Shown here one piece after another: positions 2,623 to 60,450 of a stretch of DNA of 64,000 bases. Each line of letters opens with the position of its first letter. Position 1 is the stretch's first letter. The notes under the pieces are model-generated. The model ran no database searches. It was not told the DNA's origin and saw nothing but the letters and a program-made list of their open reading frames with translations. Both the position numbers and the translations under genes were made by a program. Origin of the DNA: a virus; the IMG/VR virus record IMGVR_UViG_3300032294_001352, positions 1 through 64,000 of that record; one strand, written 5' to 3'.

Positions 2623-3546
2623 ATGGGCAGGAATCGACCAAAAGCAGGCGTTGGTGTGGTTCAGCAAGTGGTGAATCAAATCCCCACTGATGGGCAGCCG
2701 ATTGACACGGCCTATCCCTATGAGGATGGCACGTATTATTACTTGTACGGATTTCCTAAGGAAGTACAAGACATGATTATTGGTGGCGGCAATGAAGAAG
2801 CAGAGTATGTTCGGAATGCGTCACCAGAAGAGTATGAGATCCGTAAAGGAACGTACCAAAGTTTGGGTCTAGACATTGAGAATCGTGTGGACCAGCAGAT
2901 ATTTGCGGATCTTACGAGCATGTTTTCCCCAGCAAATGGAGTCATTGCACGGCGCAGCATCAATGTTGGCTACTGGAATCGTGATGAGATCAACATTGAA
3001 AATCTTTCATTTTCTACCACAAAGGAAACGCCAGACTACGTGGGCTTTGCCATGATTGCTCGGCAGGTGACTGCGGCACAGGAGATTGCACGTCGTACCG
3101 GAATGATTGTGCACATAGACGTGAATGCAGCACAGGGTGGTACATATTCCGGTTTCTCAGTCTGGCCAAAACTCGGTTATGACTTTGAGATTCCTGAGCA
3201 ACTACAAACACTTCTTGTAGAGGATTATGGATTCAAAGAGAATGAAGTAGACAAAGGCACTGCCGCATTTATGAGTACATACAATCGCAACGGCTATGAC
3301 GGATATAGCGTGTGGCGTGAAATCACGGAAAATCTCAATCTAAGTTACTCACCAAGTGGGCGCACAACCATCTATCCTGATGGCCGATCAACGCCAGCAC
3401 TGGAAGTGACAAAAGAATACGCACGTCAATTCTCTAAGTCTGTTAAGCGGCAACAGCAGGGTGTCTTTGGGAATGGCCAACTGAGTGACGAAGATGACGC
3501 TATCCTGCATGAGATTTGGATGAACATGCGCAACGCAAAGGATTGA
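2623..3546 (+). CDS. MGRNR-tagged protein 1, GNAT-like acetyltransferase domain
   Basis: N-term MGRNRPKAGVGVV; GFAMIARQVTAA...GFSVWPKLGYDF shared with four paralogs. Confidence 0.6.
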   Translation: MGRNRPKAGVGVVQQVVNQIPTDGQPIDTAYPYEDGTYYYLYGFPKEVQDMIIGGGNEEAEYVRNASPEEYEIRKGTYQSLGLDIENRVDQQIFADLTSMFSPANGVIARRSINVGYWNRDEINIENLSFSTTKETPDYVGFAMIARQVTAAQEIARRTGMIVHIDVNAAQGGTYSGFSVWPKLGYDFEIPEQLQTLLVEDYGFKENEVDKGTAAFMSTYNRNGYDGYSVWREITENLNLSYSPSGRTTIYPDGRSTPALEVTKEYARQFSKSVKRQQQGVFGNGQLSDEDDAILHEIWMNMRNAKD

Positions 3547-4375
3547 TGATGGGGCGCAATCGGAAACGCACAAGTGCCAGTGTTGGAGCAGTCACCTACC
3601 GTATTGTTGAAAGCGGCAGTAGTGGTGACATCACCAAAGAACTTGGTGACTGGTCCACGTATCCACCACGCGCCAAATCCATGTTTCAAGACGGAGTAAG
3701 CACGTTGGCTGCGTTTGTTGCCAGTGATGAGCGATGGTCCAACTTAGTGCGTGACAAGTTTGGGCTTGATCCTGCCAATCCTGCACATCTTGAAGTTGTT
3801 GCGGCAGTCGCAGGAATCACCAGTGCAGAAGACTTAACGCTTGATGATGATGAGGAAAACACCATATTGTCATCTGGGCTTGATTCAAGTGGCCGTGTAT
3901 CTGTGTGGCCATCCGCTGATGGTACACGCATTGACGTGGATATTGGTACGTTTGCCAAATTACGGACATCCAATCAACCACGTCTAGCCTACGCAATGAT
4001 TCGACGCATGGTGTGGGGGATGCGGCAGTGGGCTGAGATACAGGGTGTTCCACCAGAGGGTGCTATTTACAGGCTGAGTCTGATGGAATGGCAATGAATG
4101 GAGTGGAAACATGGGCTAAACTCGGATTCAATTTCACGTTGCGTCGGGAACTCCGTAGTGCCGCAGAAGACGCAGGATTCAGTAGCACAAGCACACTGGA
4201 TCTAATGACGGAGCGGAATGCTAATGGTCAACTAGGCTTTGATGCGTGGAATAGCATTGTAGCCCAAGTGATTGCTGAGGATGGCAGCGCAGAAGCAGAT
4301 GGTGGATTCCAGATTGGAGATGGAAGCAGCAGTTTGCGTGTACTTCAACGATATGGTGAATTACAAGGCTATTAA
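3546..4375 (+). pseudogene. MGRNR-tagged protein 2, GNAT-like, split by a frameshift near 4058-4075 (ORFs 3546-4097 and 4088-4375)
   Basis: First half MGRNRKRTSASVGAV...AYAMIRRMV; second half GVETWAKLGFNF...LMTERNANGQLGFDAW matches the paralog C-termini. Confidence 0.6.
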
Positions 4376-5095: not shown

Positions 5096-6343
5096 ATGGG
5101 CCGTAATCGTAAAAAGGGTGGCGCAGGAGCAGGTGCAACGACGGCCACTCCAGTGCCGCAAGCAAACGCAGGAACAATCAATGGTTGGGAGCAAATTGGT
5201 GACAACGCAGACGGAACGCTTACCAAAGTGTTGCCAGATGGCACCGTCTTGACTATCTATCCAACGTCCTCTGGTCCAAATGATTTTGCGATTGACGTTG
5301 AGCAAGATCGAAGTGGTGGCGTTAGTGTGATTGCTGTAGAGGATGCACGCAACGCTGATGGCACGTTCAACATGGATGCAATTGCGGCAGCAGCACAACG
5401 CTACGCAGAAGCGTTGCAATCAGAAGAACCGTATTATGAGGATGAGGCAGAATTACAGTCAGGCCTTATTGACTTTCTCAATGAAATTGGTCGTGAAACT
5501 GGTGCACCTGGCTTCTTTGATCGCTTACTCCGTGGCGAACCAGTGCAGTCACCACAAGCCGTGGCTGAGTCACGCAAATTGGCTGATGAGTCCGCAAAGG
5601 CAGCAGATACGTTTGGTACGGTGGTGCAACGCATGGCACCGGACCAGATGAATGCACAACAGGCTGCTGCGGCACGTCAGGCCATTATCCAAGGCATTCA
5701 GGCTGCTGGTGGTGCACTGAGTAAGCAGGATTTGGCTGATATGCAGCGTATTGCTGGAATGCTCTCACCAAACTTTGTTGAGCGGCAACGGAATCGTGTG
5801 TTGGGTGGAATTGCTGCACTTGGCCGGATGCACGCAGACGTGGCCACGGCTTTGCGTCGTGGTACTAATGCTGGCATTCAGGAAGCGTTGGATCGCACGT
5901 CACGCGTAGAAGACGGCCTCCGTACTACGGTTGACACAGTGATGCAAGGTGCGCTGCAACAAGATGCGTTAGTGCGGCGCCTTAATGCACTATCCAAGCG
6001 TGCTGAGCGTCAGGGATTCCCAGAACCAGCACGTCAGGCCATCATTCAGGCTATCCGCTCATTACCACTTGTAGAACTGGAAAAATCAAGCAGTGGTGCT
6101 GTGGGAATGATTGCGCGCCTTGGTCGCAATGGCTTACTTCCAAGCGTACAAGCCGTAGCACAAGCACGCCAGTTGGGTGGGCGGCAAAACTTGCAGGCCA
6201 ATGTACAGGAAACGGCTGAGGGTATTGCGCGTGCAATCACTATCCGTCGTGAGCAACAAGGCCAGAAGTCACCTGCCAAACAAATCACTGATCGCCTACG
6301 CACGTTAGAGCGTGCCAGTGCTGTAGCACGCTCTGGTCGATAA
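5096..6343 (+). CDS. MGRNR-tagged protein 4, Ala/Gln/Arg-rich helical
   Basis: AGGAG RBS then MGRNRKKGGAGAGA. Confidence 0.75.
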   Translation: MGRNRKKGGAGAGATTATPVPQANAGTINGWEQIGDNADGTLTKVLPDGTVLTIYPTSSGPNDFAIDVEQDRSGGVSVIAVEDARNADGTFNMDAIAAAAQRYAEALQSEEPYYEDEAELQSGLIDFLNEIGRETGAPGFFDRLLRGEPVQSPQAVAESRKLADESAKAADTFGTVVQRMAPDQMNAQQAAAARQAIIQGIQAAGGALSKQDLADMQRIAGMLSPNFVERQRNRVLGGIAALGRMHADVATALRRGTNAGIQEALDRTSRVEDGLRTTVDTVMQGALQQDALVRRLNALSKRAERQGFPEPARQAIIQAIRSLPLVELEKSSSGAVGMIARLGRNGLLPSVQAVAQARQLGGRQNLQANVQETAEGIARAITIRREQQGQKSPAKQITDRLRTLERASAVARSGR

Positions 6344-6395
6344 GACTTGATGATGCATGTAGGATAAATCTAGAACGTAGCAAAGGAGAGATACC

Positions 6396-7346
6396 ATGGG
6401 CCGTAATCGAAAAAAGGGTGGTGGTGCTGGGGCTGTGGAAAATCGTGAACCAGAGTTGGATTCAGGTGGTGGCGGCAATAATCAACCGTTTATCAATCCA
6501 CCAGAACCACAAGAAGAAGTTCCTGTTGAACCGCAGCCACAACCACGTCAACGTATGACACCAGAGCAAGTGTTTGGTCCAGACATTTACGATCCAGGCA
6601 TTCCGCGTCAACTTGAACCAGGCGGCATTCGTACTGCGTGGAATAATGCAACGGCTGCACAACTTGGTCGTGCATTAGAAGATGCGCCAACTGCACAATC
6701 ATTTACGATGATGTACAATTTGCCAACCGCACGCGAGTATTTTGACATTCCATCTAAAGAGCGAGCACCACTCACAAAACGCGAAGTATTGCAGTTGGCT
6801 GACGTGATTGGTGGTTCAGAAATTGTACGAAATGATGGATATGATGCACTTCTTCGTGATCTTGGACTTGAGGGAATGCCGCGTGCAACGTCACGTACTA
6901 TCCGAGTTGGCCGTGACACCAAGCCAATGGTTACGCGCGTCAGTCGGTTAGCACGAAAGTTGCCAGGTATTGAAAATCTTAATCCTGAAGATCGTGCGCG
7001 CGTTGGTGCTATCTTAGACGTGATTGGTGGTATCTCATTGACGCGTGAGCGTGCATGGGAAACCATGATTTTGACTCGTGGTCAAACAACGCCAAAAGGC
7101 GAAGTGATGGGGCGGCAAGTCAAACGATTGATTGCTGAGGGGCGTCGATTGTCTAATGAAATCAATCGCATTATGGGTGATAACACGCCACCACGAAAAG
7201 ATGGACTTCCTAAGCCTGGCACACCTGGTGCACAAGTGTATGACGCTCTCTTCACTAAGGCTGGTCGTGGGCATGATTTCCGCGCACGCAATCACAAGGC
7301 ACCGATGTACGCAGATCGTGGTCTAGAACAAATCAACAACGACTAA
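6396..7346 (+). CDS. MGRNR-tagged protein 5
   Basis: AAGGAG RBS then MGRNRKKGGGAGAVE. Confidence 0.75.
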   Translation: MGRNRKKGGGAGAVENREPELDSGGGGNNQPFINPPEPQEEVPVEPQPQPRQRMTPEQVFGPDIYDPGIPRQLEPGGIRTAWNNATAAQLGRALEDAPTAQSFTMMYNLPTAREYFDIPSKERAPLTKREVLQLADVIGGSEIVRNDGYDALLRDLGLEGMPRATSRTIRVGRDTKPMVTRVSRLARKLPGIENLNPEDRARVGAILDVIGGISLTRERAWETMILTRGQTTPKGEVMGRQVKRLIAEGRRLSNEINRIMGDNTPPRKDGLPKPGTPGAQVYDALFTKAGRGHDFRARNHKAPMYADRGLEQINND

Positions 7347-7410: not shown

Positions 7411-7785
7411 TTATTTCACGCACATCTCAATGAGCAACGCGCGGAGATGTGCATCTTGCATGGCCACACTTGCTTGGTCTGGTTGCACAGGCAGCATGGC
7501 AATGACTTTCCGGATAATCGCATCGGTGATGGGCAGCGTGTTTCCCTCACGATCTGCTGGACCAGTAATCACGGATGGACCAAACAGCGTGTGGCCAAAC
7601 AGTGCCACGATTCCCCAGTTCAATCCCATGCCTTGGCCAATCCCATCATCATTCACGAAGATGCTATATTGACGCTCTCCGAGCACGTCAAAGTATCCTC
7701 CAACGTGCTCTTGCAATGATTCCATCCCAATGTCAAACAATGGCACCCACTCTGCGTTATCGGTAATCTTGATTCCTTTAATCAT
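7411..7785 (-). CDS. DUF3846-like protein
   Basis: LQEHVGGYFD...IFVNDDG...N...LFGPSVITG. Confidence 0.65.
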   Translation of the reverse strand: MIKGIKITDNAEWVPLFDIGMESLQEHVGGYFDVLGERQYSIFVNDDGIGQGMGLNWGIVALFGHTLFGPSVITGPADREGNTLPITDAIIRKVIAMLPVQPDQASVAMQDAHLRALLIEMCVK

Positions 7786-8950: not shown

Positions 8951-9082
8951 AACTCCTTACTTGCGCTTCAACCTAAGATGGATCATAGCACGAAACTATT
9001 TATTTTGTCAAATCGTGTTTGACAAAGTATATCAATTTGTGATACAATCAGTTTTAAGAAGTCATGCTAGTAAGGAGCGCGT
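8951..9082. promoter_or_regulatory. Divergent sigma70-like promoter pair
   Basis: Minus strand TTGACA(9011-9006)..TGCTATGAT..AGGTTGA..AAGGAG; plus strand TTGACA(9019)..TGATACAAT..AAGGAG. Confidence 0.75.
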
Positions 9083-9427
9083 ATGGATTCAGTAGCACAG
9101 GCCAAAGTCACGGAAGCCCAAGTAACGTCGTCATTCAACTCTCACTGGTTCAATGATGATACTTACAACACGGTGTGGTTCATTGGCGAGCAACAGCCAA
9201 GCGAGGAACGGATTCGGGAAGTCTGTGAGTGGGCTGATGATAATGACTACGATGAGGGAAGCAATTCCTCACGCGTGGAGGCCATCCGGTTCTTTGATGA
9301 CATGAGCAACGCACGCAATGGTCATGTGGTCATTGACATGGCCAACAAGGCTATCTACGTTTGGCAGGATGGCCGACCGATTGTGAAAGAGTGGGCTATA
9401 GCAGAGTTTGGAGCGTTCATACAATGA
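9083..9427 (+). CDS. Hypothetical protein
   Basis: AAGGAG RBS after the promoter. Confidence 0.65.
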   Translation: MDSVAQAKVTEAQVTSSFNSHWFNDDTYNTVWFIGEQQPSEERIREVCEWADDNDYDEGSNSSRVEAIRFFDDMSNARNGHVVIDMANKAIYVWQDGRPIVKEWAIAEFGAFIQ

Positions 9428-9771
9428 GTGCATTGATTATCCGCGCCAATGGCGCACACGAAGTCTTGCAGGGGCCTATCACGCTGCAACGCATTGAGCA
9501 GGCCCTTGGTGGCTGGGTGGTGGATGGTGTGACGGATTTGGGCTATCACGTCTGGGGTGCTGACATTGACGTGCTTGATGGCAATATTCCGGCCGATCCT
9601 GTGAAGTATCAGCCAAACATCCACGTATCACGCTTGTTTCGCCTTGTGATGTGGGGTGACGTGGTGGTCACTGGTTCACCGATTGCCAATTCACGGAGTA
9701 ATCGACTTGCGGCAGTGGATGAGAATCATTTGGCGTTGTTTATCAGTCATTTACCAAAGGAGCACGCATGA
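9424..9771 (+). CDS. Divergent DUF3846-like protein
   Basis: ALIIRANG...LQRIEQALGGWV...PN...WGDVVVTG; ATGA overlap with the previous gene. Confidence 0.5.
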   Translation: MSALIIRANGAHEVLQGPITLQRIEQALGGWVVDGVTDLGYHVWGADIDVLDGNIPADPVKYQPNIHVSRLFRLVMWGDVVVTGSPIANSRSNRLAAVDENHLALFISHLPKEHA

Positions 9772-10679
9772 CCAAAATCTTTACCTACTTTGGTGGCGAT
9801 CGCCAATTTGATACCGTGGCAAAGAGTCAGGATATTGAGGCCACGCTGCACGCTCGTGGGCTTGGCCACTATATCCAGATGGCAAAGCCACTCACGCAAC
9901 AGCAGGCAGAAACGTATGGGCATACTGCGGCATATGTCAAAGCGTTGATGACTGGGAATCCGTACTATCTTGCGTCTAGCAGTGGTCTTGCGTGGAATGT
10001 GCACTACCGGAACGCAATCTTTGGCATGGCCGGAGCAATGCTTGAAGCCATGCAATACACGCTTGTCACCAACAAGCCATCGTTCGCCCTTGCGGCAGGA
10101 GCGCATCACGCTCGACCAGAGAAAGGCAAAGGCTTTTGCGCGCTCAACTCCGTGGCCATGGCAGCGTTGTACGCAGCGCGATCCACTGGCCGTCAGGTGT
10201 ACGTGCTTGACGTGGATGCACACGCTGGTGGTGGCACCCAAGCATTCATCAACAAAGAGTACAATGAAGACATTCATCATCTTGATTTGATTGTGCATCC
10301 ATTTGATGCGTATGCGCCTGATCGACCACAAGACGCACAGATCACGGTAGATGTGTACAACATGAATCCAGTGGACGCGTATTTCAGTGGCCTTGGTGAG
10401 TTGCTCTCATTTGTAGACACCTGCTATCCAACCATTCCTGGTGACATCTTGATTGTGAATGCTGGATGTGATGTGCATGAGCAATCAGCCATTGGTGGCT
10501 GGGAGGGAATGGATACAGCGATGATCGCGGTTCGTGAGTCATGGATCCGTGAGTGGGCAGCGGAGCGCGGATTACGGATGGTAGGATTGTTGGCCGGTGG
10601 CTATAGTGATGAGCAATTCACGCCACAGCATCTAGCAGACACGCACGTTGCATCTATTGGCACGTTGATGGGATTATAG
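9768..10679 (+). CDS. Histone deacetylase (HDAC/AcuC) family Zn-dependent deacetylase
   Basis: Motifs GAHHA, GFCALN, LDVDAHAGGGTQ, NAGCDVH and LAGGYS in the canonical order. Confidence 0.9.
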   Translation: MTKIFTYFGGDRQFDTVAKSQDIEATLHARGLGHYIQMAKPLTQQQAETYGHTAAYVKALMTGNPYYLASSSGLAWNVHYRNAIFGMAGAMLEAMQYTLVTNKPSFALAAGAHHARPEKGKGFCALNSVAMAALYAARSTGRQVYVLDVDAHAGGGTQAFINKEYNEDIHHLDLIVHPFDAYAPDRPQDAQITVDVYNMNPVDAYFSGLGELLSFVDTCYPTIPGDILIVNAGCDVHEQSAIGGWEGMDTAMIAVRESWIREWAAERGLRMVGLLAGGYSDEQFTPQHLADTHVASIGTLMGL

Positions 10680-10688
10680 GAGAAAAGT

Positions 10689-10889
10689 ATGTTGCATCTC
10701 ACTGCTACGCGTGTGGATGGCCACGGAGTCATCACGTTGACGGAAAAGGATGTGCCCACGTTGCTCTATTGGGTGGTCCGTGCCATGAAAGAGCGCGGAT
10801 GGCTTGGGGCAGCCGTGGTGATCAGGAATGAAGCGCGTGAGATTGTGTTTGATTCCGTCGTTCCGGCCAATCTGCCAAAAGATTCCTAA
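10689..10889 (+). CDS. Hypothetical protein
   Basis: AGGAG RBS. Confidence 0.55.
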   Translation: MLHLTATRVDGHGVITLTEKDVPTLLYWVVRAMKERGWLGAAVVIRNEAREIVFDSVVPANLPKDS

Positions 10890-10898
10890 AATCCCTAC

Positions 10899-10964
10899 TT
10901 GACAAAGCGTCATACATACTATATAATTTGTCATAGGTTGATGATTCAGTAAGGAGCACCGCTT
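10899..10964 (+). promoter_or_regulatory. Repeated phage promoter/leader
   Basis: TTGACA..TATAAT..AGGTTGA..AAGGAG. Confidence 0.75.
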
Positions 10965-11438
10965 ATGACTACCACTTCAGTTGCTATGACGCTTGACCAA
11001 CTCAAAGACATGCTCGCCGAGTATGAGGCCAAAGTGGCGCGTAACGTGAGCAATCCGCTCATTCCTCACGGCTTCTGGTCTGACGTGGTGGCCGATCTCC
11101 GCGATCTCATCGCCAACGGTGGTGTGGTGGTTGAAGAGGCCTTGTTCACGCTTGACGGCCAGCATGTGGCCAACGCTGTGGTGCGTGAGCGTCAGAGCGA
11201 GTTTGGCCTCCGCAACACCACCTACAAGCAGTGGACATGGCAGGATGCTGATGGTGGCTACAATCGCGTGCCATACGCGCCAAAGCGTCGTTCCACGTTG
11301 GCCAACAAAGGCTACACTGAGGGTGAAATCACCTACGCTGTCACCGTGGAAGTGTGGGAAAACTACCACGGTATGCAGTTGGACATCAAGAAAGTCCATG
11401 AGATCAGCCGGATTACCGACATCTGGGAGGTGGAATAA
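10965..11438 (+). CDS. Hypothetical early protein
   Basis: RBS and promoter upstream. Confidence 0.7.
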   Translation: MTTTSVAMTLDQLKDMLAEYEAKVARNVSNPLIPHGFWSDVVADLRDLIANGGVVVEEALFTLDGQHVANAVVRERQSEFGLRNTTYKQWTWQDADGGYNRVPYAPKRRSTLANKGYTEGEITYAVTVEVWENYHGMQLDIKKVHEISRITDIWEVE

Positions 11439-18480: not shown

Positions 18481-21417
18481 GTGGATGATCACGTCATGAG
18501 CAAACCGGAATCATTTGCGCCACCAATCGAAGTCAAGAACAACGCACGCAAAGCGTTGGAGTATCGCGCCAAACTGCCACCAAGTAAGCGTGGTATGACG
18601 GCTGTAGGGATTGCACGCGCACGGGATCTCTCCATTGGTCGTCCACAGTCACTTGACACCATTCAACGGATGGTATCTTTTTTTGCACGTCACGCAGTTG
18701 ACAAGCAGGCTGAGAATTGGGAAGTTGGCAGCAAAGGCTGGCAGGCTTGGATGGGATGGGGTGGTGATGCTGGTCGTCGATGGGCTGAGCGGATTCTCGC
18801 TACGGCCATGAAAGATGAATCCACCGTCAAGAAAGAAGCAACACCTGCGGCATCTGTGAATCCAACACCTGCTCCGTCACCAACTCCGACACCAAAGCCA
18901 ACCGATCCTACACCAACCAAACCTGCTGAACCTGAGGGTGGTATGGCGATTGGCCAACTCCGCGCCATTGCGGACAAGGCCACGCTACTGGCCAACCTGC
19001 TTACTCCAGAAAGCACGCTTGAACCGTGGGTGCTCTCGCTGATCAGCGTGGCTGAGTATCAGGTGGATGCAGTGTCCGATTACTTCAAGTATTCAGGTGC
19101 TGGCAGCCCAGCATCTCAAACATTGACTGCGGCAACGAACCAAGAAGCAAAGAAAGGGCTAGGTATGCAGAAGACATTGCGACCAGTGCCCAGTGACATC
19201 ATTGAAAAGTCACTGACTAGCACTATCACGAAGCGTCAAAAGACGTTTGGTGGTGAACAACGTGAGGATCTGCGTGATGATGATTTCGTCATTGCAGAGG
19301 AACGCAAGTTCCCTATCATGACTGCGGCAGATGTAAGTGATGCTGTCAGTTCATGGGGCCGATATGCAGGTGGGAAGAATGCACGGATCACATTTGACAC
19401 GTTCAAAGATCGCCTTACTGCTTTGGCCACGAAAAAAGGCTTTAAGGATGCACTTCCTGATACGTGGCTAGCAGAAATGGAGGAAGATGACGTGTCACCA
19501 GACAAAGAAGCGTTTGCGAAGTACTACTTCTTTAAGGCTGCCAATCCTGAGCAGCGAGTAGTCGTCGGCTACGCATCATCAGAGCGGATTGATGGCCAAA
19601 ATGACATTGTAGACTCAGAGGCCTTACAACAGGCACTTGATGACTACATGCAATGGGCCAACCTGCGTGAGATGCATCAGCCAAAGGCCGTGGGCAAAGT
19701 GTTGCAGGCCACCCCAGTCAAAGGAAAGATCCGCTTAAGCGATGGTACGGTGCTGGTGAATCCGCTCCGAATCATTGCAAAGATTGTGGATGAGGATGCG
19801 TGGCAAAAAGTCAAGTCAGGCATTCTCAAAGGCTTCTCGATTGGCGGCAAGGTGTTGAACTCTGTCACACAGAAAGTCAACGGTAAGGATGTTCGACGAA
19901 TCACCGGCCTCTCACTCAATGAGATCAGTCTGGTGGATCGTCCGGCCAATCCAGATGCGCGCATCGTCATGATGAAACGTGATAGCAGCATGACGCAGGA
20001 TGACGTGGCCAAGATGGTTAAAGGCGGCATGGTTGATGACTTAATCATGAAAGCCAAGATGGCCGATCCACAAGAAATCCTGCCTATGATTCAGCAACTC
20101 CGCAACCAAGCAGAAGTTGATGGCGATCTTGACACGGCTGAACGCTACAACGAAGTTATCACGCTCATGCTTGAAGCCATGGGGATTATTCCTACTGGCA
20201 CGGTGCGTGAGTTGGATGATATGGAGTCACCGGACATCCTAGACAACACTCCTGAGGATGACATGGATGCCATGGTGGACATGGAAGCGATTTACGGTGA
20301 GAGTGGTGAGGAAGAATCCAAGGCACTCAAACGTCGCAACACCATCATGTACGCTGACCAGCCTGACGATCTTTTGAAGATTGGCCGTGCTATCAGTAAG
20401 AGCAACATGGATACGCTCGCAGACATCCTCACTGCCGCCAACATCATCCGTACTCTGTGTGCCAAACTCGGTTTGGAACTGAAAGAAGAGGCTGATGAGA
20501 ATGAGGGTGGTGAGGAAGCGCATGAGCACAGTGAGGGTGAGGGTGCTATCGCCGTAGCCGTCAAGCCCATTGCCGCAGAAGTCACCACGGTAGAAGAGTC
20601 AATGACACCGACCATTCCAGCCAGCAAAGAGCAGGCCGTGTTGGATGCCATTGAAAACGCACCAAAGAAGATGATGCCAGGCAATAACACTGGATCACCT
20701 ATCCATACGCCAATGAATCCGAACGCGCCAGCCCAAAACGTGACTGGTGGCTATCCGATTCAACGGAACGCACAGAATGGCGATTTGCAAAAGCAGGATG
20801 CTGCTGATGCTGTCGATATAACCGGTTTAGAAAAGGAGATGCAATCAATGGAGCAGACCATTGAGAACGCACCTGTTCAACCTGCCGAGGAAACGCCTAT
20901 TGCCGCACCAGAGGAAACTGCAACCGAAAAGGCAGATACCCCACCGGCTATTGACGTATCAGCAGCGTTACAGGATGTCATCGCCAAGTCGCTACAAGGC
21001 GCATTGGCAGGCACGTTTGCCCAGTTGGACACCGTAGCCAAGGCCGTAGAGCGGATTGAGACGAAGAGCACTGAGTCAAATGCCGCACTCACCGAGTCAA
21101 TCGACGCCACCAAGAAGATGGTTGAACCACTGGTAGAAAAAGTGAGCGCACTTGAAGCCGTGGCAGCCGAAGTCAAAGCCTTGGGTGAGCGATTGCAGGC
21201 CATTGAGTCACAACCTGAGAGTGGTGGTCCGGTGTTGCGTGGCCAATCAGTGAACAAGGCCTTGGGTGTAGGTGGCAATAGCACTGAGGAACCACAAGAC
21301 GAAATCGGTACGCTCCAGAAGATGATTGATGATACGCACGATCCGTTGGTTCGCACCCGACTTCGTGAGCGATTGGCCCATCTGGAAACCAAGAAAGCCC
21401 TCTTTGGGCGCATTTAG
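18481..21417 (+). CDS. Prohead protease (XkdF/S78-like) fused to N-terminal accessory domains and a C-terminal scaffold
   Basis: GYASSERID...LREMHQ..AVGKV...LKGFSIGG...EISLVDRPANPDA; acidic coiled-coil C-terminus; immediately upstream of the capsid gene. Confidence 0.85.
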   Translation: MDDHVMSKPESFAPPIEVKNNARKALEYRAKLPPSKRGMTAVGIARARDLSIGRPQSLDTIQRMVSFFARHAVDKQAENWEVGSKGWQAWMGWGGDAGRRWAERILATAMKDESTVKKEATPAASVNPTPAPSPTPTPKPTDPTPTKPAEPEGGMAIGQLRAIADKATLLANLLTPESTLEPWVLSLISVAEYQVDAVSDYFKYSGAGSPASQTLTAATNQEAKKGLGMQKTLRPVPSDIIEKSLTSTITKRQKTFGGEQREDLRDDDFVIAEERKFPIMTAADVSDAVSSWGRYAGGKNARITFDTFKDRLTALATKKGFKDALPDTWLAEMEEDDVSPDKEAFAKYYFFKAANPEQRVVVGYASSERIDGQNDIVDSEALQQALDDYMQWANLREMHQPKAVGKVLQATPVKGKIRLSDGTVLVNPLRIIAKIVDEDAWQKVKSGILKGFSIGGKVLNSVTQKVNGKDVRRITGLSLNEISLVDRPANPDARIVMMKRDSSMTQDDVAKMVKGGMVDDLIMKAKMADPQEILPMIQQLRNQAEVDGDLDTAERYNEVITLMLEAMGIIPTGTVRELDDMESPDILDNTPEDDMDAMVDMEAIYGESGEEESKALKRRNTIMYADQPDDLLKIGRAISKSNMDTLADILTAANIIRTLCAKLGLELKEEADENEGGEEAHEHSEGEGAIAVAVKPIAAEVTTVEESMTPTIPASKEQAVLDAIENAPKKMMPGNNTGSPIHTPMNPNAPAQNVTGGYPIQRNAQNGDLQKQDAADAVDITGLEKEMQSMEQTIENAPVQPAEETPIAAPEETATEKADTPPAIDVSAALQDVIAKSLQGALAGTFAQLDTVAKAVERIETKSTESNAALTESIDATKKMVEPLVEKVSALEAVAAEVKALGERLQAIESQPESGGPVLRGQSVNKALGVGGNSTEEPQDEIGTLQKMIDDTHDPLVRTRLRERLAHLETKKALFGRI

Positions 21418-21433
21418 GAGGAAGTAGCACACA

Positions 21434-22927
21434 ATGGCAAACATCACTGAAGACACCCTTAATTTGATTAAGGCGGCACATGCCCAGCAGGGTGACAACA
21501 TCAGCAAGAGCATTACCACTGCCAATAATTTGGTGGCGTATGACTTGCAGGCACCGGCTAAGAATCTCTATCCGGTACAGACTCCTATCCGCAACACGTT
21601 GCCACGCACCGGTGGTATCGGTACGGCCACCAACTGGCGCACCGTGCGAAACATCATCGGTTCTGGCTTTGATGCCATGGGCTGGGTGCCGGAAGGCCAG
21701 CGCAGTGGTCGCATGTCGTACTTGACGCAATCACTCAGTGCATCGTATAAGACGATGGGTGAGGAAGATCAAGCAACGTACGAAGCCATTAGTGCTGGTC
21801 GTGGCTTCGAAGACATTCGCGCTCGCATGACCATGCGCTTGTTGCAGAAGTTGATGCTCAAAGAGGAAGCAGCCATCATTGGCGGCAACACTTCGGTTTC
21901 ATTGAGCGCTCCGGCTGCGCCAACCGTCAGTGCTGGTGCCTCAGGTGGTACCGTTGCTGCGGATAACTACTACGTCTGGTGTGTTGCGCTCACCTATGAG
22001 GGGTATCGCAACTCAAGCGTTGCCAGTGGCGTGGCCACGAGTCAGACCATCACCGGTGCTGACGGCCTCACCTACACGTTGAGTGGTGGTTCAAGTGCGG
22101 CATCAGCCATCTCATTGGTCCAAGCCATCACCCTTGGTCAGACGCTCCGTGCATCTGTTCCTGTGGTCAACGGTGCGATTGGCTATGCATGGTACGTGTC
22201 AAAGACCAACAACACGGCTGGTACTGCGTTCTTGCAGGCCATCACCACAATCAACTCAGTGGAGTTCACTGCACCAGTGGTTACGAGCGGCACGCAGTTG
22301 GTTACGGCTATCACGGCCAACAACTCAACCAACACCTTGGCCTTTGACGGCTTGATGTATCAGGCATTCAACACGTCAAGTGGTGCCTACGTGCAGCCAT
22401 TGGCCACCGGTACGGCCGGTACTGGCACTCCGTTGACGGCCAGTGGTCGTGGTTCAGTAGAAGAGATTGACGACATGTTGGTCACGATGTGGAACAACAA
22501 CCAGTTGTCACCCACCGTCATCTACTGTAACGCTCAGGAAATCCGCAACATCTCAAACAAGGTGTTGAGTGGCGGCACCAATGCTCCGTTGGTCCGTTAC
22601 AACCTGAACAATGAGCAATCAATGGCTATCGGTGCTAGCCCATTCATTGACTCATACTTCAATCCAATCACCAAGCAGCCATTGAAGGTGGAAGTGCATC
22701 CAAACGTTCCTCCTGGCACGATCTTGGCCTGGGCTGACAACTTGCCAGCACAGTATCAGTCAAGTGAAGTACCAAACGTGGCTGAAATCCGCGCACGTCA
22801 AGACTACTACCAGATTGACTGGCCTGTCACCAGCCGTCAACAACAGGTTGGCGTGTACGCTGAGGAAGTCTTGGTTGTCTACGCTCCGTTTGCGATTGGT
22901 ATCATCACCAACATCGCCAACGGTTAG
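21434..22927 (+). CDS. Major capsid protein (HK97 fold, with insertion domain)
   Basis: Position after protease-scaffold; AGGAGG RBS; YDLQAPAK.LYP..TP.RN.LPR and AFDGL motifs. Confidence 0.85.
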   Translation: MANITEDTLNLIKAAHAQQGDNISKSITTANNLVAYDLQAPAKNLYPVQTPIRNTLPRTGGIGTATNWRTVRNIIGSGFDAMGWVPEGQRSGRMSYLTQSLSASYKTMGEEDQATYEAISAGRGFEDIRARMTMRLLQKLMLKEEAAIIGGNTSVSLSAPAAPTVSAGASGGTVAADNYYVWCVALTYEGYRNSSVASGVATSQTITGADGLTYTLSGGSSAASAISLVQAITLGQTLRASVPVVNGAIGYAWYVSKTNNTAGTAFLQAITTINSVEFTAPVVTSGTQLVTAITANNSTNTLAFDGLMYQAFNTSSGAYVQPLATGTAGTGTPLTASGRGSVEEIDDMLVTMWNNNQLSPTVIYCNAQEIRNISNKVLSGGTNAPLVRYNLNNEQSMAIGASPFIDSYFNPITKQPLKVEVHPNVPPGTILAWADNLPAQYQSSEVPNVAEIRARQDYYQIDWPVTSRQQQVGVYAEEVLVVYAPFAIGIITNIANG

Positions 22928-56439: not shown

Positions 56440-57155
56440 CAATGGTTGACGTGCAATGCTGTGATGGGAGCGGATGGTACAAAAAGGAAGTTCCGTTTGG
56501 CCATCCTGACTGGGGAAAGTTGTTTCGGTGTGAGTGCGGCAAGGCTGGCGATCCGGAAGCGCGGATGAATGCGTTGCATGATGCACTCAAATCCTATGGC
56601 GAGTGTCGGTTTGACAACTGGTTTACCGATCGACCACTAGAACCAAACACATGGGGTGGCGTGACGTACAAGACGGAAGATCAGTACAAGGCCTTACGGA
56701 TTGCTACCAAGCGCGCCAAAGCCTATGCTGACGATCCTGAGGGAATGCTCTTTATCTTTGGCAGTTTCGGTGCTGGTAAGACGCACTTGGCTGCAGCCAT
56801 AGGCTACGCATGTGCAGAGCGGAATCTGCGTGTGCAGTATCACAACATCACTAATCTCGTAAGCAAACTGCGGCAAGCAGCAGGTGACTTTGATGTGGAG
56901 TCAATCATGCAACCACTGTTGACTGCTGACGTGCTGATCTTGGATGACATCGGTGCTGAGGAATCAATGTCAGCCTTTATCCAGTCACAAATCTATCGCT
57001 TGATTGATGAGCGATTGCATTTGGCCACCGTTATCACGTCAAATCTGGATGTGCAGTCACTCACGGACAAGATCGGTGGGCGCACGCAATCTCGATTACA
57101 AATGGCCCAGACCATCTGGTTGCCAGTATCTGATTACCGGAAGCAGAAGAAGTAG
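56436..57155 (+). CDS. DnaC/IstB-like AAA+ helicase loader
   Basis: Zn motif C.GSGW...CEC; Walker A GSFGAGKTHLA; Walker B LILDDIGAE; TSNL; SRL. Confidence 0.9.
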   Translation: MTMVDVQCCDGSGWYKKEVPFGHPDWGKLFRCECGKAGDPEARMNALHDALKSYGECRFDNWFTDRPLEPNTWGGVTYKTEDQYKALRIATKRAKAYADDPEGMLFIFGSFGAGKTHLAAAIGYACAERNLRVQYHNITNLVSKLRQAAGDFDVESIMQPLLTADVLILDDIGAEESMSAFIQSQIYRLIDERLHLATVITSNLDVQSLTDKIGGRTQSRLQMAQTIWLPVSDYRKQKK

Positions 57156-57156
57156 C

Positions 57157-58341
57157 ATGGACATTCAACGCAAAGCCAAAATTGCGGCACAACAGACGTT
57201 GTTTGATGTGCAACCAAACTGGAAAGACTTCTGGTGGGATATGCCTGCCTTTGAGCAGCAGGATGCAAGAGCAACCAAGACCATCAGTGTTCACTTCCTG
57301 ACCATGGATGACTTCTATGAGTTTTGTGCGGCACTTGATGTGAAGTTGACTCCGAAGTCACTCTCACTCTGGTACCCACCACAGCAACGGATGAATGGTG
57401 AGTATCTGTACACTGGACCACAGGTAGATGCACGCTATCCGGTGTGCATTCCATCCAAGGGGCGCTGGGATAACCACAAGACTGCGGCAGCACTTGATCG
57501 GATGGGTGTGTCATACCGGTTCTTTGTAGAAGACACAGAGGCTGATGCGTACATCAACGCACTTGGGGCTGAGCGTGTGGTGGTCATGCCATTCCATGAT
57601 CTTGGCCAAGGCAGCATTCCGGCCAGAAACTTTATCTGGGAATGGGCAGTCACGCATGGATATAGGCGGCATTGGGTGATGGATGACAACATCGTCAACT
57701 TCAAGCGGATCACTAACAATCGACGAGTGAGAGTTCGCACTGGCATGTTTTTCCGTGCCATTGAGGATTTCGTGGATCGCTATGACAACATTGCGTTGGC
57801 TGGTCCGCACCATGACGGTTTCGTCAAAGATCGCTATCCTCACAAGCCACCAGTCATCTTTAATCGCCGCATCTACTCATGCATCCTGATAGACTCCACA
57901 CTTCCATACCGGTGGCGTGGAAAGTACAACGAGGATACCGATTTGAGTCTGCGTGTGCTAAAAGATGGCTACTGCACAGCCTTGTTTGCTGCGCTCACCA
58001 TGCACAAGCCCACGACTGCTGGCGGCAAGGGGAAACCGATGAAAGGGGGAAACACCGATACCGTTTATAACACGACTGATTACCGATTGGCCTTTGCTCA
58101 GTCACTGAAAGAGCAACACCCTGACGTGGTGGAAGTGACGTGGAAGTTTAATCGCTGGCACCACCATGTGGATTACACACCGTTCAAGAACAACCAGCCT
58201 ATACTCAGAGCGGACATCACGCCAAAGCCTGGCACCAATGAGTATGAGATGCGTTTAGTCCGTGCGGCAAGTGGTGACATTGACGTGGATCTTGATGACG
58301 ATATTGATACTGACATGATAGAAGATGAGGATGACGTATGA
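57157..58341 (+). CDS. TET-associated-type (GT-A fold) DNA glycosyltransferase
   Basis: YPVCIPSKGR, ARNFIW, HWVMDDNI, YSCILI, WRGKYNEDTDLSLRVL, GGNT. Confidence 0.72.
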   Translation: MDIQRKAKIAAQQTLFDVQPNWKDFWWDMPAFEQQDARATKTISVHFLTMDDFYEFCAALDVKLTPKSLSLWYPPQQRMNGEYLYTGPQVDARYPVCIPSKGRWDNHKTAAALDRMGVSYRFFVEDTEADAYINALGAERVVVMPFHDLGQGSIPARNFIWEWAVTHGYRRHWVMDDNIVNFKRITNNRRVRVRTGMFFRAIEDFVDRYDNIALAGPHHDGFVKDRYPHKPPVIFNRRIYSCILIDSTLPYRWRGKYNEDTDLSLRVLKDGYCTALFAALTMHKPTTAGGKGKPMKGGNTDTVYNTTDYRLAFAQSLKEQHPDVVEVTWKFNRWHHHVDYTPFKNNQPILRADITPKPGTNEYEMRLVRAASGDIDVDLDDDIDTDMIEDEDDV

Positions 58342-59438
58342 AGTTCGTAGTACACCGTGACAATCTCCGTAAGGCCATCTCTATGGTTGGTCATGCCATT
58401 CCGAGTAAGACATCACTTCCGGTGTTGGCCAACATCTTGGTTCAGTCTGATGGTGACACGCGCCTCCGTGTTGCGGCAACGAACTTGGAGTTGGGGATTA
58501 CCTGCTGGATTCCGGCCACCATCACGGAGCGTGGTCAAATCACCGTACCTGGCAAGTTAGGTGGTGACTTGGTCAACAACCTGCCCAGTGAACCTATCCA
58601 TGTGAATGTGGATGCTACCAGTATCCGAATGCAATGCGGCAAGTTTGACAACACCATCATGGGATTGTCAGCAGAAGATTTCCCCACGCTGCCCAAAATC
58701 ACGCATCCATCCATCACGCTCCCACGCGCGTTTGTGGATGCGATTGATCATGTCATTGTGGCTGCAGCCACGGATGACTCTCGACCAGTGCTCACGGCCG
58801 TGCGTATCGTGGTGAATGAGCACTCCGTGGAACTGGTCTGTGCTGACGGATTCCGTTTGGCACGCACCACGTTCACACTGAGCGAACCTGCGGCACCTAC
58901 GGAGATTCTTGTACCTGCACGCACCATGGCTGAAGTGCTGCGGATTATGGGCAATGCTGAGTCTATCACCATGGCCATTAGCCCCAACAACAACCAAGTG
59001 GCGTTCATCTCTGAGGATGTGGAGATAGTCAGCCGTGTCATTGAGGGAAAGTATCCTGACGTGGCGCGTGTCATTCCCACGGAGTTCCAGTCACAGTTCG
59101 TCTTTGAGATTGATGAACTGCGTCGTGCTTCTAAAGTTGCGGCATTGATGAATCCTGCGTCTGGTGTCAAGTTGATGATCACGCCAATGCACATTGCACT
59201 CATTAGCAGTGGCCAGAGCATCGGTACTGGTCAAGCATTGATTGGTGGAGTCCACGAAGGTGCGCCACATGACATCAACCTGAACGTCAAGTACTTGCAG
59301 GATGCGTTGAATGCAGTGCAGAGCGCAGGCGGCACCCAAGCAGTGTTGCGGACCACGAGTAGCACTGCCCCAGCCATTCTTCAAGCCGTAGGCAATACCA
59401 ACTACGTTCACGTTGTAATGCCGATGATGGTCCGATAA
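58338..59438 (+). CDS. dnaN: DNA polymerase III beta sliding clamp
   Basis: LPVLANIL, ATNLELGI, DFPTLP, RPVLT, DGFRLA, GKYPD..RVIP, VMPM. Confidence 0.93.
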   Translation: MKFVVHRDNLRKAISMVGHAIPSKTSLPVLANILVQSDGDTRLRVAATNLELGITCWIPATITERGQITVPGKLGGDLVNNLPSEPIHVNVDATSIRMQCGKFDNTIMGLSAEDFPTLPKITHPSITLPRAFVDAIDHVIVAAATDDSRPVLTAVRIVVNEHSVELVCADGFRLARTTFTLSEPAAPTEILVPARTMAEVLRIMGNAESITMAISPNNNQVAFISEDVEIVSRVIEGKYPDVARVIPTEFQSQFVFEIDELRRASKVAALMNPASGVKLMITPMHIALISSGQSIGTGQALIGGVHEGAPHDINLNVKYLQDALNAVQSAGGTQAVLRTTSSTAPAILQAVGNTNYVHVVMPMMVR

Positions 59439-59496
59439 TCAGTGAATGCATGGGTGGCTACGCTGCATGGTGTGGCCACCCACAGGAGCAATACAT

Positions 59497-60450
59497 ATGT
59501 CATGGCAAAACCGGATTGTTGGCTATGCTAACGTACCAACCAATGAGTTGCAGGCCAATCCACGCAACTGGCGCGTGCATAATAAGCGGCAAGAAGACAC
59601 ACTGGCTGATGTACTCGGCGAAGTCGGGATCGTACAGAACATTGTGGTCAATCAACGTACTGGCCTCGTGGTAGACGGCCATCTCCGTTTGGCACTTGCG
59701 ACCAAACAAGGCCAAGCGGAAGTACCAGTCACGTACATTGATGTGACTGAGGAAGAAGAAGCCATCATCATGGCCACGTTTGATCCAGTTGGTTCACTTG
59801 CGGCAACGGATAAACAGTTGCTCCAAAACCTGCTTGATACCATGCCAGCACTGCCAACGTGGCAGGAGATGTTTGACACCATCATTCCACCAGTGATTCC
59901 GATGGATCTTCCACCACTTGTGCCAATCACCTACGATAACGCTGCGGAGCGGCAACCAGTAGACAAGTCAAAGAACCTGCTTGGTGATGCACTCAGTACC
60001 ACGTACAAAGAACCAAAGGAAGCCAAACCGGCCAAGCAGCCGTGGGAATATGATTACGAGAAAGACGATCCTGATGATGACGTGGATGATGAACCGTCAC
60101 TTAGTGGCCAACCAGCCAAACTGAATCCCTCATACACGCCACGGATCGGCGAAGTGTGGATGATTGACACCTGCCATCGAGTGTTTGTGACGGACAATGC
60201 GGCAAACGTGAAATGGATTGATCCTGACTGGCGACCAATCAAGCCAAACAAGTCACCTCACCGGATGATTGACTTGATGCATCGGATGTACCTAGACACG
60301 CAGATAGATGCGATTGCGGAGTGGCGCGTGGTGTCATGCACCGATGCACAGAAGCGGCATACGTGGTATCAGGTGGCCTTACGACCAGACCAAGCAGCCA
60401 TGCTCATTGCACTTGCGGATGACATGCGTATTTCATCGGAGATGATGTGA
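59497..60450 (+). CDS. ParB/Srx-like N-terminal domain protein
   Basis: NPRNWRVH...IVVNQRTG.VVDGHLRL...VPV.YIDV.EEEE. Confidence 0.8.
   Translation: MSWQNRIVGYANVPTNELQANPRNWRVHNKRQEDTLADVLGEVGIVQNIVVNQRTGLVVDGHLRLALATKQGQAEVPVTYIDVTEEEEAIIMATFDPVGSLAATDKQLLQNLLDTMPALPTWQEMFDTIIPPVIPMDLPPLVPITYDNAAERQPVDKSKNLLGDALSTTYKEPKEAKPAKQPWEYDYEKDDPDDDVDDEPSLSGQPAKLNPSYTPRIGEVWMIDTCHRVFVTDNAANVKWIDPDWRPIKPNKSPHRMIDLMHRMYLDTQIDAIAEWRVVSCTDAQKRHTWYQVALRPDQAAMLIALADDMRISSEMM

Follow-up and report, generated by a model that had tools for sequence, protein, structure and literature searches.

What would a bacteriophage do with a histone deacetylase (HDAC)? The question is raised by one gene (positions 9768-10679) in IMG/VR virus record IMGVR_UViG_3300032294_001352. 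The record has 87,876 bases with 123-base direct terminal repeats, and its first 64 kb, called the window here, is the stretch of 64,000 nucleotides that was analyzed. The source is an uncultured bacteriophage of ~88 kb. An earlier reading of the window, the original prediction, took the gene product to be a Zn-dependent deacetylase which, paired with acetyltransferases of the GNAT type encoded by the same phage, might run a reversible acetylation circuit. We find that the gene codes for an intact, monomer-sized Zn-dependent enzyme of the HDAC family, predicted from its sequence to be catalytically competent. Its sequence places it in the class IV-like branch of the superfamily, in a subfamily which has not been characterized. 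As to its role, we tentatively favor a putative eraser of host acyl marks that would be made early and would work in the cytoplasm.

Pfam finds one family in the deacylase, PF00850 (Hist_deacetyl; E 4.1e-28, 99 bits with a cut-off of 27.9), and the match covers residues 24-284, corresponding to positions 12-287 of the 298 in the profile. The four motifs named in the original prediction are all there: the His-His dyad in GAHHA (residues 111-115), the D-x-H Zn ligands in DVDAH (148-152), the third ligand in GCD (233-235) and the Tyr of GGY (277-279). H113, H114, D148, D150, H152, D235, G277, G278 and Y279 do not vary among the 8 aligned relatives (27-88% identity) or across the 46 rows of a broader alignment, and the catalytic residues are kept in 138-154 of the 154 nearest representatives. 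They also align with the same residues of two solved structures, 9RJE and 9GKV. An AlphaFold2 model made from the 46-row alignment has a predicted local distance difference test score (pLDDT) of 95.8 and a predicted template modeling score (pTM) of 0.94. When this model was used in Foldseek at least 500 HDAC-type chains of the PDB were found at E <= 0.001, with top template modeling (TM) scores of 0.78-0.82 (5ji5 ranked first, 9gz5 second and 9gky fourth); the modeled deacylase has the arginase/deacetylase alpha/beta fold. PHROGs, NCBIfam and PADLOC gave no family or model for the protein. A Shine-Dalgarno-like AAAGGAG lies 6 nucleotides ahead of the ATG, which overlaps the stop codon of the preceding open reading frame (ORF) as ATGA.

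The branch to which the deacylase belongs was approached through its matches in the PDB. The single sequence gives 9RJE (5e-17), 9GKV (1e-14), 5JI5 (6e-14) and two-domain HDAC6 chains (~3e-14), and more weakly the acetylpolyamine amidohydrolases (APAH; 9e-8 to 3e-6) and the class I enzyme HDAC8 (~2e-6). A profile of the 46-member subfamily finds 9GKV at 2.8e-51, 9RJE at 2.4e-41 and 9GZ5 at 1.6e-35; two-domain HDAC6 chains also appear with this profile, at 1e-40. Because 9RJE, 9GKV/9GKY, 5JI5 and 9GZ5 are the best matches by sequence, by profile and in Foldseek, the deacylase is on sequence grounds class IV-like (the HDAC11 / bacterial cluster 5 branch) and neither AcuC-like nor APAH-like. This placement was obtained from the matches; the tree described below contains subfamily members only.

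Something is known about these structures from two papers. 9GKV/9GKY is VcHdaH, a lysine de-decanoylase from Vibrio cholerae of bacterial sub-cluster 5b, and human HDAC11 is also found in cluster 5 (PMC11532494). 9RJE is a clade A HDAC11 from Chlamydomonas, reported to have no detectable peptide deacylase activity, and 9RJD/9GZ5 is a clade B HDAC11 from Leptospira, a long-chain deacylase (PMC13325672). According to the same source the class IV branch is noted not for deacetylation but for the removal of long acyl chains or for acting on substrates other than peptides. Among the Foldseek matches 9gz5 contains dodecenoic acid and 9gky decanoic acid; in both enzymes, from Leptospira and Vibrio, an acid was co-purified in the foot pocket.

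Two other identities were considered and rejected. One was AcuC: class I chains match at ~1e-6, there are no NCBIfam families, and there is no acetoin or AcsA context, the neighbors being DUF3846-like and small ORFs. The other was an enzyme of the APAH/HDAC10 type: APAH chains reach only the values given above, and there is no polyamine gene context. The HDAC10-type Glu gatekeeper is also missing; enzymes of this group have a P-E-G (HDAC10 Glu gatekeeper) or P-I-S motif (PMC11532494), together with an L2 loop that forms dimers, and at the motif position the alignment with 9RJE reads A-I-G, with no Glu and no Pro.

The residue just before the HH pair separates the two HDAC11 clades. It is Phe or Tyr in clade B, where it serves as foot-pocket gatekeeper, and Thr or Ser in clade A; other signs of clade A are the Arg of an H-R-F-D motif and an Arg-Glu pair closing the pocket (PMC13325672). 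In the deacylase this residue is Ala112, and each of the 8 aligned rows has Ala there; the 154 nearest representatives have mostly Leu (114), followed by Met (14), Ala (12) and Phe (9). The bulky gatekeeper of clade B is therefore absent. Compared with clade A the gatekeeper is small and non-polar, and loop L1 has R-Q-F-D, read by eye outside the HMMER alignments. Since Ala112 differs from the Phe/Tyr of clade B as well as from the Thr/Ser of clade A, the sequence appears to fit neither HDAC11 clade and assigns the deacylase to an uncharacterized subfamily. The stretch following the Zn-binding His is H-(C/A)-G-G-G-T, with Gly155 in the deacylase and Gly in 141 of the 154 representatives. HDACs typically have an Asp or Asn after H-x-G, which partners the second catalytic His. 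This residue of the usual H-x-G-D/N-G is missing from the deacylase, where Gly155 occupies the position which we take to be the equivalent of Asp183 in HDAC8. Of 1.84 billion representatives, 28 match the subfamily with an E-value limit of 1e-30; the figure rises to 386 when the limit is 1e-10 and to 3,926 when it is 1e-3.

That such genes are uncommon in phages, as the original prediction stated, agrees with our searches. A tblastn search of 50,697 phage records gave 6 matches (and PHROGs 0 families), and at least 80% of the query was covered in 2 of them, both from Rhodococcus phage E3; the gp202 gene of E3 is an earlier example of an HDAC-family annotation in a phage. The 5 matches in BFVD at E <= 0.001 belong without exception to giant viruses of eukaryotes. 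A collection of 5.8 billion proteins contains 7 matches, with 87, 77, 72, 51, 50, 42 and 31% identity, and all catalytic residues are retained in the homologues from 87% down to 42%. Among the IMG/VR viral contigs no relative was found with the single deacylase protein; with a deacylase alignment 9 distant loci of 26-29% identity appeared. The JGI metagenome contigs gave 4 loci, of which one, L104, is the only close relative, its deacylase being 50% identical. L104 is syntenic with the phage, as homologues of g86516, g1627, g2122, g6396, g7411 and g8218 surround its deacylase gene. Given this synteny around a 50% identical copy, a small phage lineage has conserved the deacylase gene within its early region.

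The major capsid protein (497 aa, 21434-22927; phrog_13692, E 1.7e-106) has 305 related stretches in IMG/VR, up to 85% identical; among cultured phages those of Brevundimonas come closest, with 40%. From these stretches 80 loci were kept, and the 40 with contigs of at least 12 kb were searched for PF00850. None contains it, a result which is uninformative since the five contigs that were fetched share the structural module only and not the early region.

Cellular relatives were collected with one genome per species; at least 276 were found among 600 candidate stretches, and the statements below refer to the best 80. These are 29-38% identical and come from Chloroflexota, Actinomycetota, Verrucomicrobiota, Gemmatimonadota, Acidobacteriota and others. 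In a quick IQ-TREE analysis of 101 rows without outgroup, with branch support from the SH-like approximate likelihood-ratio test (SH-aLRT), a phage clade of 8 rows (SH-aLRT 100) and 13 Chloroflexota-type rows together make up a group of 21 (SH-aLRT 93). E3 gp202 is paired with a Rhodococcus gene (SH-aLRT 97), and the 9 IMG/VR loci stand beside an Acidimicrobiales row (SH-aLRT 90). The nearest cellular relatives by sequence are thus the 13 Chloroflexota genes, which is consistent with capture of the gene from such a lineage. Two points weaken this claim: it is based on a quick tree without outgroup, and the approximately unbiased (AU) test fails to reject a single clade of all 18 phage/viral rows (p 0.075, for a group named post hoc). 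Separate acquisitions by phages were also considered, as the tree sets three phage/viral groups apart, yet in view of the same p value they are not claimed.

Two of the 13 loci, L108 and L110, are filed as bins of 'uncultured Klebsiella sp.'. Their gene order and near-identical HDAC are those of the Chloroflexota contigs, the branch lengths of L108 and L109 are 0.004 and 0.02, and both are probably mis-binned. The phage capsid gene was found in none of the five Chloroflexota genomes that carry HDAC relatives. A capsid homologue is present in 14 of 301 sampled genomes of Chloroflexota, the one phylum searched; these include locus L189 (genome G279), and the best identity is 48%. With a single phylum covered these counts assign no host; one of the 14 genomes, G218, is flagged as unpublished and supports no claim here.

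How might the enzyme work? Judged from sequence and model, D150, H152 and D235 would bind the Zn ion that activates water, with the H113/H114 pair as general base and acid. Y279 would stabilize the tetrahedral intermediate, and the outcome would be removal of an N-acyl group from an amine. The deacylase would be made early in the infected cell and would act in the cytoplasm, because it lacks the cargo tag found at the N-terminus of other proteins of this phage (see below) and because a host-type sigma-70-like promoter lies ahead of its unit. Of the early promoter in the original prediction the consensus site itself is there (Table 1); its timing is unproven, and a scan of the region gave 10 consensus-like sites, compared with 6.8 +/- 2.6 in shuffles. 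The substrate would be acyl-lysine on host (or phage) proteins. A host-directed eraser might reset the acylation state, or undo an acyl mark imposed by the host, and would do so independently of the tagged GNAT-like proteins of the phage. The small Ala before HH, where most of the subfamily has Leu, suggests from the sequence an acyl-pocket specificity unlike that of both HDAC11 clades, and the acyl group need not be acetyl.

The neighbors of related genes bear on the choice of substrate. At all 13 Chloroflexota-type loci a divergent gene for a microbial-type PARG of ~292 aa (PF10021, E 4.3e-28) adjoins the HDAC gene, at 12 of them there is also a Swt1-like HEPN gene (PF18731, E 8.7e-22), and a UvrD helicase and a PD-(D/E)XK nuclease flank the PARG/HEPN/HDAC genes. 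PADLOC has no model for the PARG or HEPN neighbor proteins, and the HDAC-PARG-HEPN neighborhood may be an undescribed module for erasing modifications or related to defense. In five of the 80 bacterial loci, from Actinomycetota, a gene of ~210 aa resembling a dual-specificity phosphatase (DSP) lies directly upstream of the HDAC gene, and the viral loci L002 and L005, from a second group of phage contigs, show this arrangement too. The DSPc matches are sub-threshold (28.6-29.3 bits, with a Pfam cut-off of 33.5), and the copy in viral locus L010 has no Pfam match. The phage genome itself contains no PARG and no SIR2. These contexts suggest a role in removing modifications, with which protein and small-molecule substrates are alike compatible.

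Several observations weigh against an eraser of acyl marks on host proteins. The best single-sequence match in the PDB, 9RJE, is the clade A enzyme without detectable peptide deacylase activity. In clade B activity is lost when the bulky residue before HH is changed to Thr (PMC13325672), and the deacylase has Ala. After H-x-G there is Gly155, a position taken by Asp or Asn in other HDACs. Among 10 longer relatives there is one, P0031 (567 aa, matched to the HDAC subfamily at residues 38-173), that also contains a domain of N-formylglutamate amidohydrolase (PF05013, E 9e-45), a small-molecule enzyme, as a natural fusion. The PARG and DSP neighbors could equally well go with a small molecule derived from ADP-ribose, and the phage is itself without PARG.

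Deacylation of a small molecule is a close rival of the host-mark eraser, one that we consider possible though rather unlikely. The original prediction had named polyamine deacetylation and reversal of host acetylation as its alternatives. The substrate could be an acetylpolyamine, an N-acyl amino acid, an acylated molecule derived from ADP-ribose or NAD, or an acylated metabolite resembling an antibiotic (N- or O-acyl), and the phage would benefit from a supply of polyamines or from the destruction or recycling of a host metabolite or signal. The nearest solved sequence belongs to a HDAC11 of clade A, and its proposed substrates are other than peptides (PMC13325672). This speaks for the small molecule, and so do the small residue before HH, as in clade A, the PARG gene at 13 of 13 nearest bacterial relatives and the fusion in P0031; the VcHdaH authors also leave small-molecule substrates open (PMC11532494). 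It is at variance with the position of the deacylase outside the APAH cluster (9e-8 to 3e-6, vs. 5e-17 for class IV), with A-I-G in the place of the Glu gatekeeper P-E-G of HDAC10, with a lysine deacylase being the best match of the subfamily profile, and with the lack of PARG and SIR2 in the phage.

The acetylation circuit of the original prediction requires a look at the presumed writers and at the tag. Thirteen proteins of the genome start with a tag of the type MGRNR(K/R/P)(K/R/P), usually followed by G-x-G-A-V (Table 1), and a Pfam search with 10 of the tagged proteins gave no family at E <= 0.01. The distance of 2.4 kb between the deacylase gene and the first tagged cluster was correctly stated; there are 2,422 bases to the last gene of that cluster (6396-7346). 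L104 has variants of the tag, MGRGRKPSQGV... and MGTRTYSRR.... Just upstream of the capsid gene the phage encodes a 978-aa protein (18481-21417) with a prohead-protease domain at residues ~350-620 (PHROG). As this protein has a head-maturation-protease domain, a natural reading of the tag is a capsid-targeting or cleavable cargo signal.

The writers would be five proteins (at 2623, 3546-4375, 47740, 48571 and 49696), which sequence comparison shows to be true paralogs. PF00583, PF13508, PF13673 and PF13302 have no match in the genome at E <= 1, with positive controls in 14 of 14 genomes, and a paralog profile finds no GNAT among the PDB sequences. A model of the 49696 protein, made from 9 sequences, has a pLDDT of 70.5, and residues 160-325 are mostly above 70. 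Foldseek gives nothing at E <= 0.001 with this model, the best match being a tandem GNAT at E 0.46. When it was compared with 48,161 PDB chains by VIA-align nearly all of the top 50 were of the GNAT fold, with Z scores of just 3.6-5.5, a range that may reflect a common arrangement. The 49696 protein contains Q-M-Q-G-A-G, a G-x-G precedes a long helix in 6 of 8 full-length rows, and the order in the model (strand, G-x-G loop, long helix, strand) is compatible with GNAT topology. A GNAT-like fold of the paralogs is plausible from the model, and they are putative active acetyltransferases at most. For the five GNAT-like proteins of the original prediction a weak resemblance in fold is seen, in the 49696 model, and no match to a Pfam GNAT family.

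According to the circuit idea the deacylase erases acetyl marks made by these tagged paralogs, possibly on the Lys-rich MGRNRKK cargo tags. We think this improbable. It draws on the presence of 13 tagged proteins and a GNAT-resembling paralog family in the same genome, on the G-x-G loop, and on the deacylase being the only one recognizable there (1 PF00850 match, no SIR2). Two relatives of the paralogs, P0157 and P0158, share an MGTRTYSRR-type start with two L104 proteins, and because of this the L104 lineage probably has both kinds of gene; shared presence in one phage lineage is, however, co-inheritance and not independent evidence. The paralogs lack GNAT matches in Pfam, among PDB sequences and in Foldseek (at E <= 0.001). 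The g2122 and g6396 homologues of L104 lie side by side, without the first paralog cluster between them, and the paralog profile finds nothing in the 18.5 kb of L104 that was covered. Ten other HDAC-bearing viral loci (~153 kb) have neither a paralog nor a tag-like start in their flanks; the profile was run on these and on five capsid relatives, 343 kb in all, with no match, and a reverse search of the IMG/VR viral contigs with the paralog alignment gave no relative. The deacylase and paralog genes are 5-40 kb apart in different units, and the deacylase is untagged. VcHdaH is reported in PMC11532494 not to act on peptides whose -1 residue is positive, which by analogy would speak weakly against a Lys/Arg-rich tag as substrate, and class IV enzymes are described as poor deacetylases (PMC11532494, PMC13325672). 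Nothing seen ties the deacylase to the paralogs or to the tag, and the circuit is unsupported but not refuted.

A wider scheme, to which we give as little weight, is a two-step program in which GNAT-fold cargo with the Gly/Arg/Lys-rich tag would arrive along with the DNA and immediately acylate targets. The untagged HDAC11-like enzyme, expressed from an early host-type promoter, would then erase those marks or, in counter-defense, marks imposed by the host, and would be part of a wider and so far undescribed set of eraser modules combining HDAC with PARG or with DSP. Among the best 80 bacterial loci and the viral loci HDAC + PARG is seen in Chloroflexota and HDAC + DSP in Actinomycetota and in other phages. 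That the gene is a passenger or decaying, a recent bacterial capture with no role in infection or a non-catalytic binding protein, is very unlikely: it is rare in phages, 0 of 40 capsid relatives carry it (though these fragments miss the early region) and Gly replaces the usual Asp/Asn, but it is of full length without stops, keeps its catalytic residues in relatives down to 42-50% identity including the syntenic phage relative, shares Gly155 with 141 of the 154 representatives of its subfamily, and has a good ribosome site, its start overlapping the stop of the preceding gene.

The features around the deacylase gene, together with the tagged starts and the loci of relatives, are collected in Table 1. 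The ORF that overlaps the start of the deacylase has no Pfam family; in the ESM Atlas it resembles DUF3846 clusters with a feature score of 0.95 (211/256 shared) and a structural TM score of 0.68-0.71. Together with a second DUF3846-type gene, at 7411-7785 on the minus strand and Pfam-positive (E 4e-10), it flanks the region; BLASTP detects no similarity between the two (E 2.3). L104 likewise has a DUF3846 homologue near its HDAC gene. Toward the end of the window there are three genes for a glucosyltransferase-like protein (57004-58341; phrog_842, E 3e-39), a sliding-clamp-like processivity factor (58338-59438; phrog_947) and a ParB-like protein (59446-60450). Another copy of the last lies outside the window (73192-74457), and the two share 43% identity at the N-terminus.

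Table 1. Coordinates of the deacylase gene, its surroundings, the tagged starts and the loci of relatives.
Feature	Position	Strand	Remarks
Sigma-70-like promoter, TTGACA-18-TACAAT with TG extension	9019-9048	+	11/12 consensus match
Divergent sigma-70-like site	9011-8982	-	11/12 consensus match
First ORF of deacylase unit	9083-9427	+	114 aa; 0 Pfam families, no usable Atlas match
DUF3846-like ORF	9424-9771	+	115 aa; ESM Atlas; stop overlaps deacylase start
Deacylase gene	9768-10679	+	303 aa; N-terminus MTKIF, without MGRNRKK-type tag
Deacylase H113/H114	10104-10109	+	His-His dyad
Deacylase D148, D150, H152	10209-10223	+	D150 and H152 are Zn ligands
Deacylase D235	10470-10472	+	Zn ligand
Deacylase Y279	10602-10604	+	Tyr of GGY
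Closing ORF of deacylase unit	10689-10889	+	66 aa; no known family
Perfect sigma-70-like promoter	10899-10927	+	12/12; starts next unit (gene 10965-11438)
Tagged starts in the window	2626, 3552, 4389, 5099, 6399, 17346(-), 46372, 47743, 48574, 49699		
Tagged starts outside the window	69003(-), 82869(-), 84207(-)		
Chloroflexota-type loci L108-L118, L120, L129	HDAC match ~6001-6830 in most		divergent PARG
DSP-like genes, bacterial loci	L119, L121, L172		often overlap HDAC start
DSP-like genes, viral loci	L002 9426-9956; L005; L010 9481-9954		often overlap HDAC start

What we have is a well-founded annotation with a predicted deacylase function, rather than a demonstrated new system. Work on Zn-dependent enzymes of the HDAC family has dealt with eukaryotes and, in recent times, with bacteria. 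Our literature searches found no functional study of one encoded by a phage, and the available part of PMC9503650 has nothing on Zn-HDACs. The subfamily has hundreds of bacterial members. An activity found for the phage enzyme would reveal the role of the subfamily. It would also bear on whether phages use deacylation for host takeover or counter-defense, and on whether the PARG and phosphatase neighbors of the bacterial relatives mark a joint module for erasing modifications.

How does the deacylase compare with known enzymes? VcHdaH resembles it in being a single domain of ~300 residues with the HH, D-x-D-x-H, D and GGY residues; it is the best PDB match of the subfamily profile (2.8e-51) and has a TM score of 0.79-0.80 to the phage model. 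The two differ in that their identity is ~20%, that VcHdaH has Tyr before HH (S-G-G-Y-H-H, PMC11532494) where the phage enzyme has Ala, and that it has H-H-G-D-G-T where the phage enzyme has H-A-G-G-G-T. VcHdaH is moreover a chromosomal bacterial enzyme whose lysine de-decanoylase activity has been demonstrated, whereas the phage enzyme is a predicted deacylase. With the HDAC11 enzymes of clades A and B the deacylase shares the catalytic core, 9RJE being its best sequence match (5e-17) and 9gz5 having a TM score of 0.81. It departs from them by the Ala before HH (Phe/Tyr in B, Thr/Ser in A), by R-Q-F-D in L1 (our own reading, outside the HMMER alignments) where they have H-P-F-D or H-R-F-D, and by the Gly after H-x-G, where HDAC11 enzymes have Asp or Asn.

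Bacillus subtilis AcuC and the bacterial APAH enzymes (clusters 2c and 4 in PMC11532494) share superfamily and chemistry with the deacylase, and their similarity to it is far weaker. Gp202 of Rhodococcus phage E3 belongs to the same subfamily (35.6% identity over 96%) and is the only protein of a cultured phage that covers the query; its gene is also found among small hypothetical genes and is annotated as a 'putative histone deacetylase protein'. It comes from a 142-kb actinophage, and it groups with Rhodococcus genes (SH-aLRT 97) and not with the clade of the phage described here.

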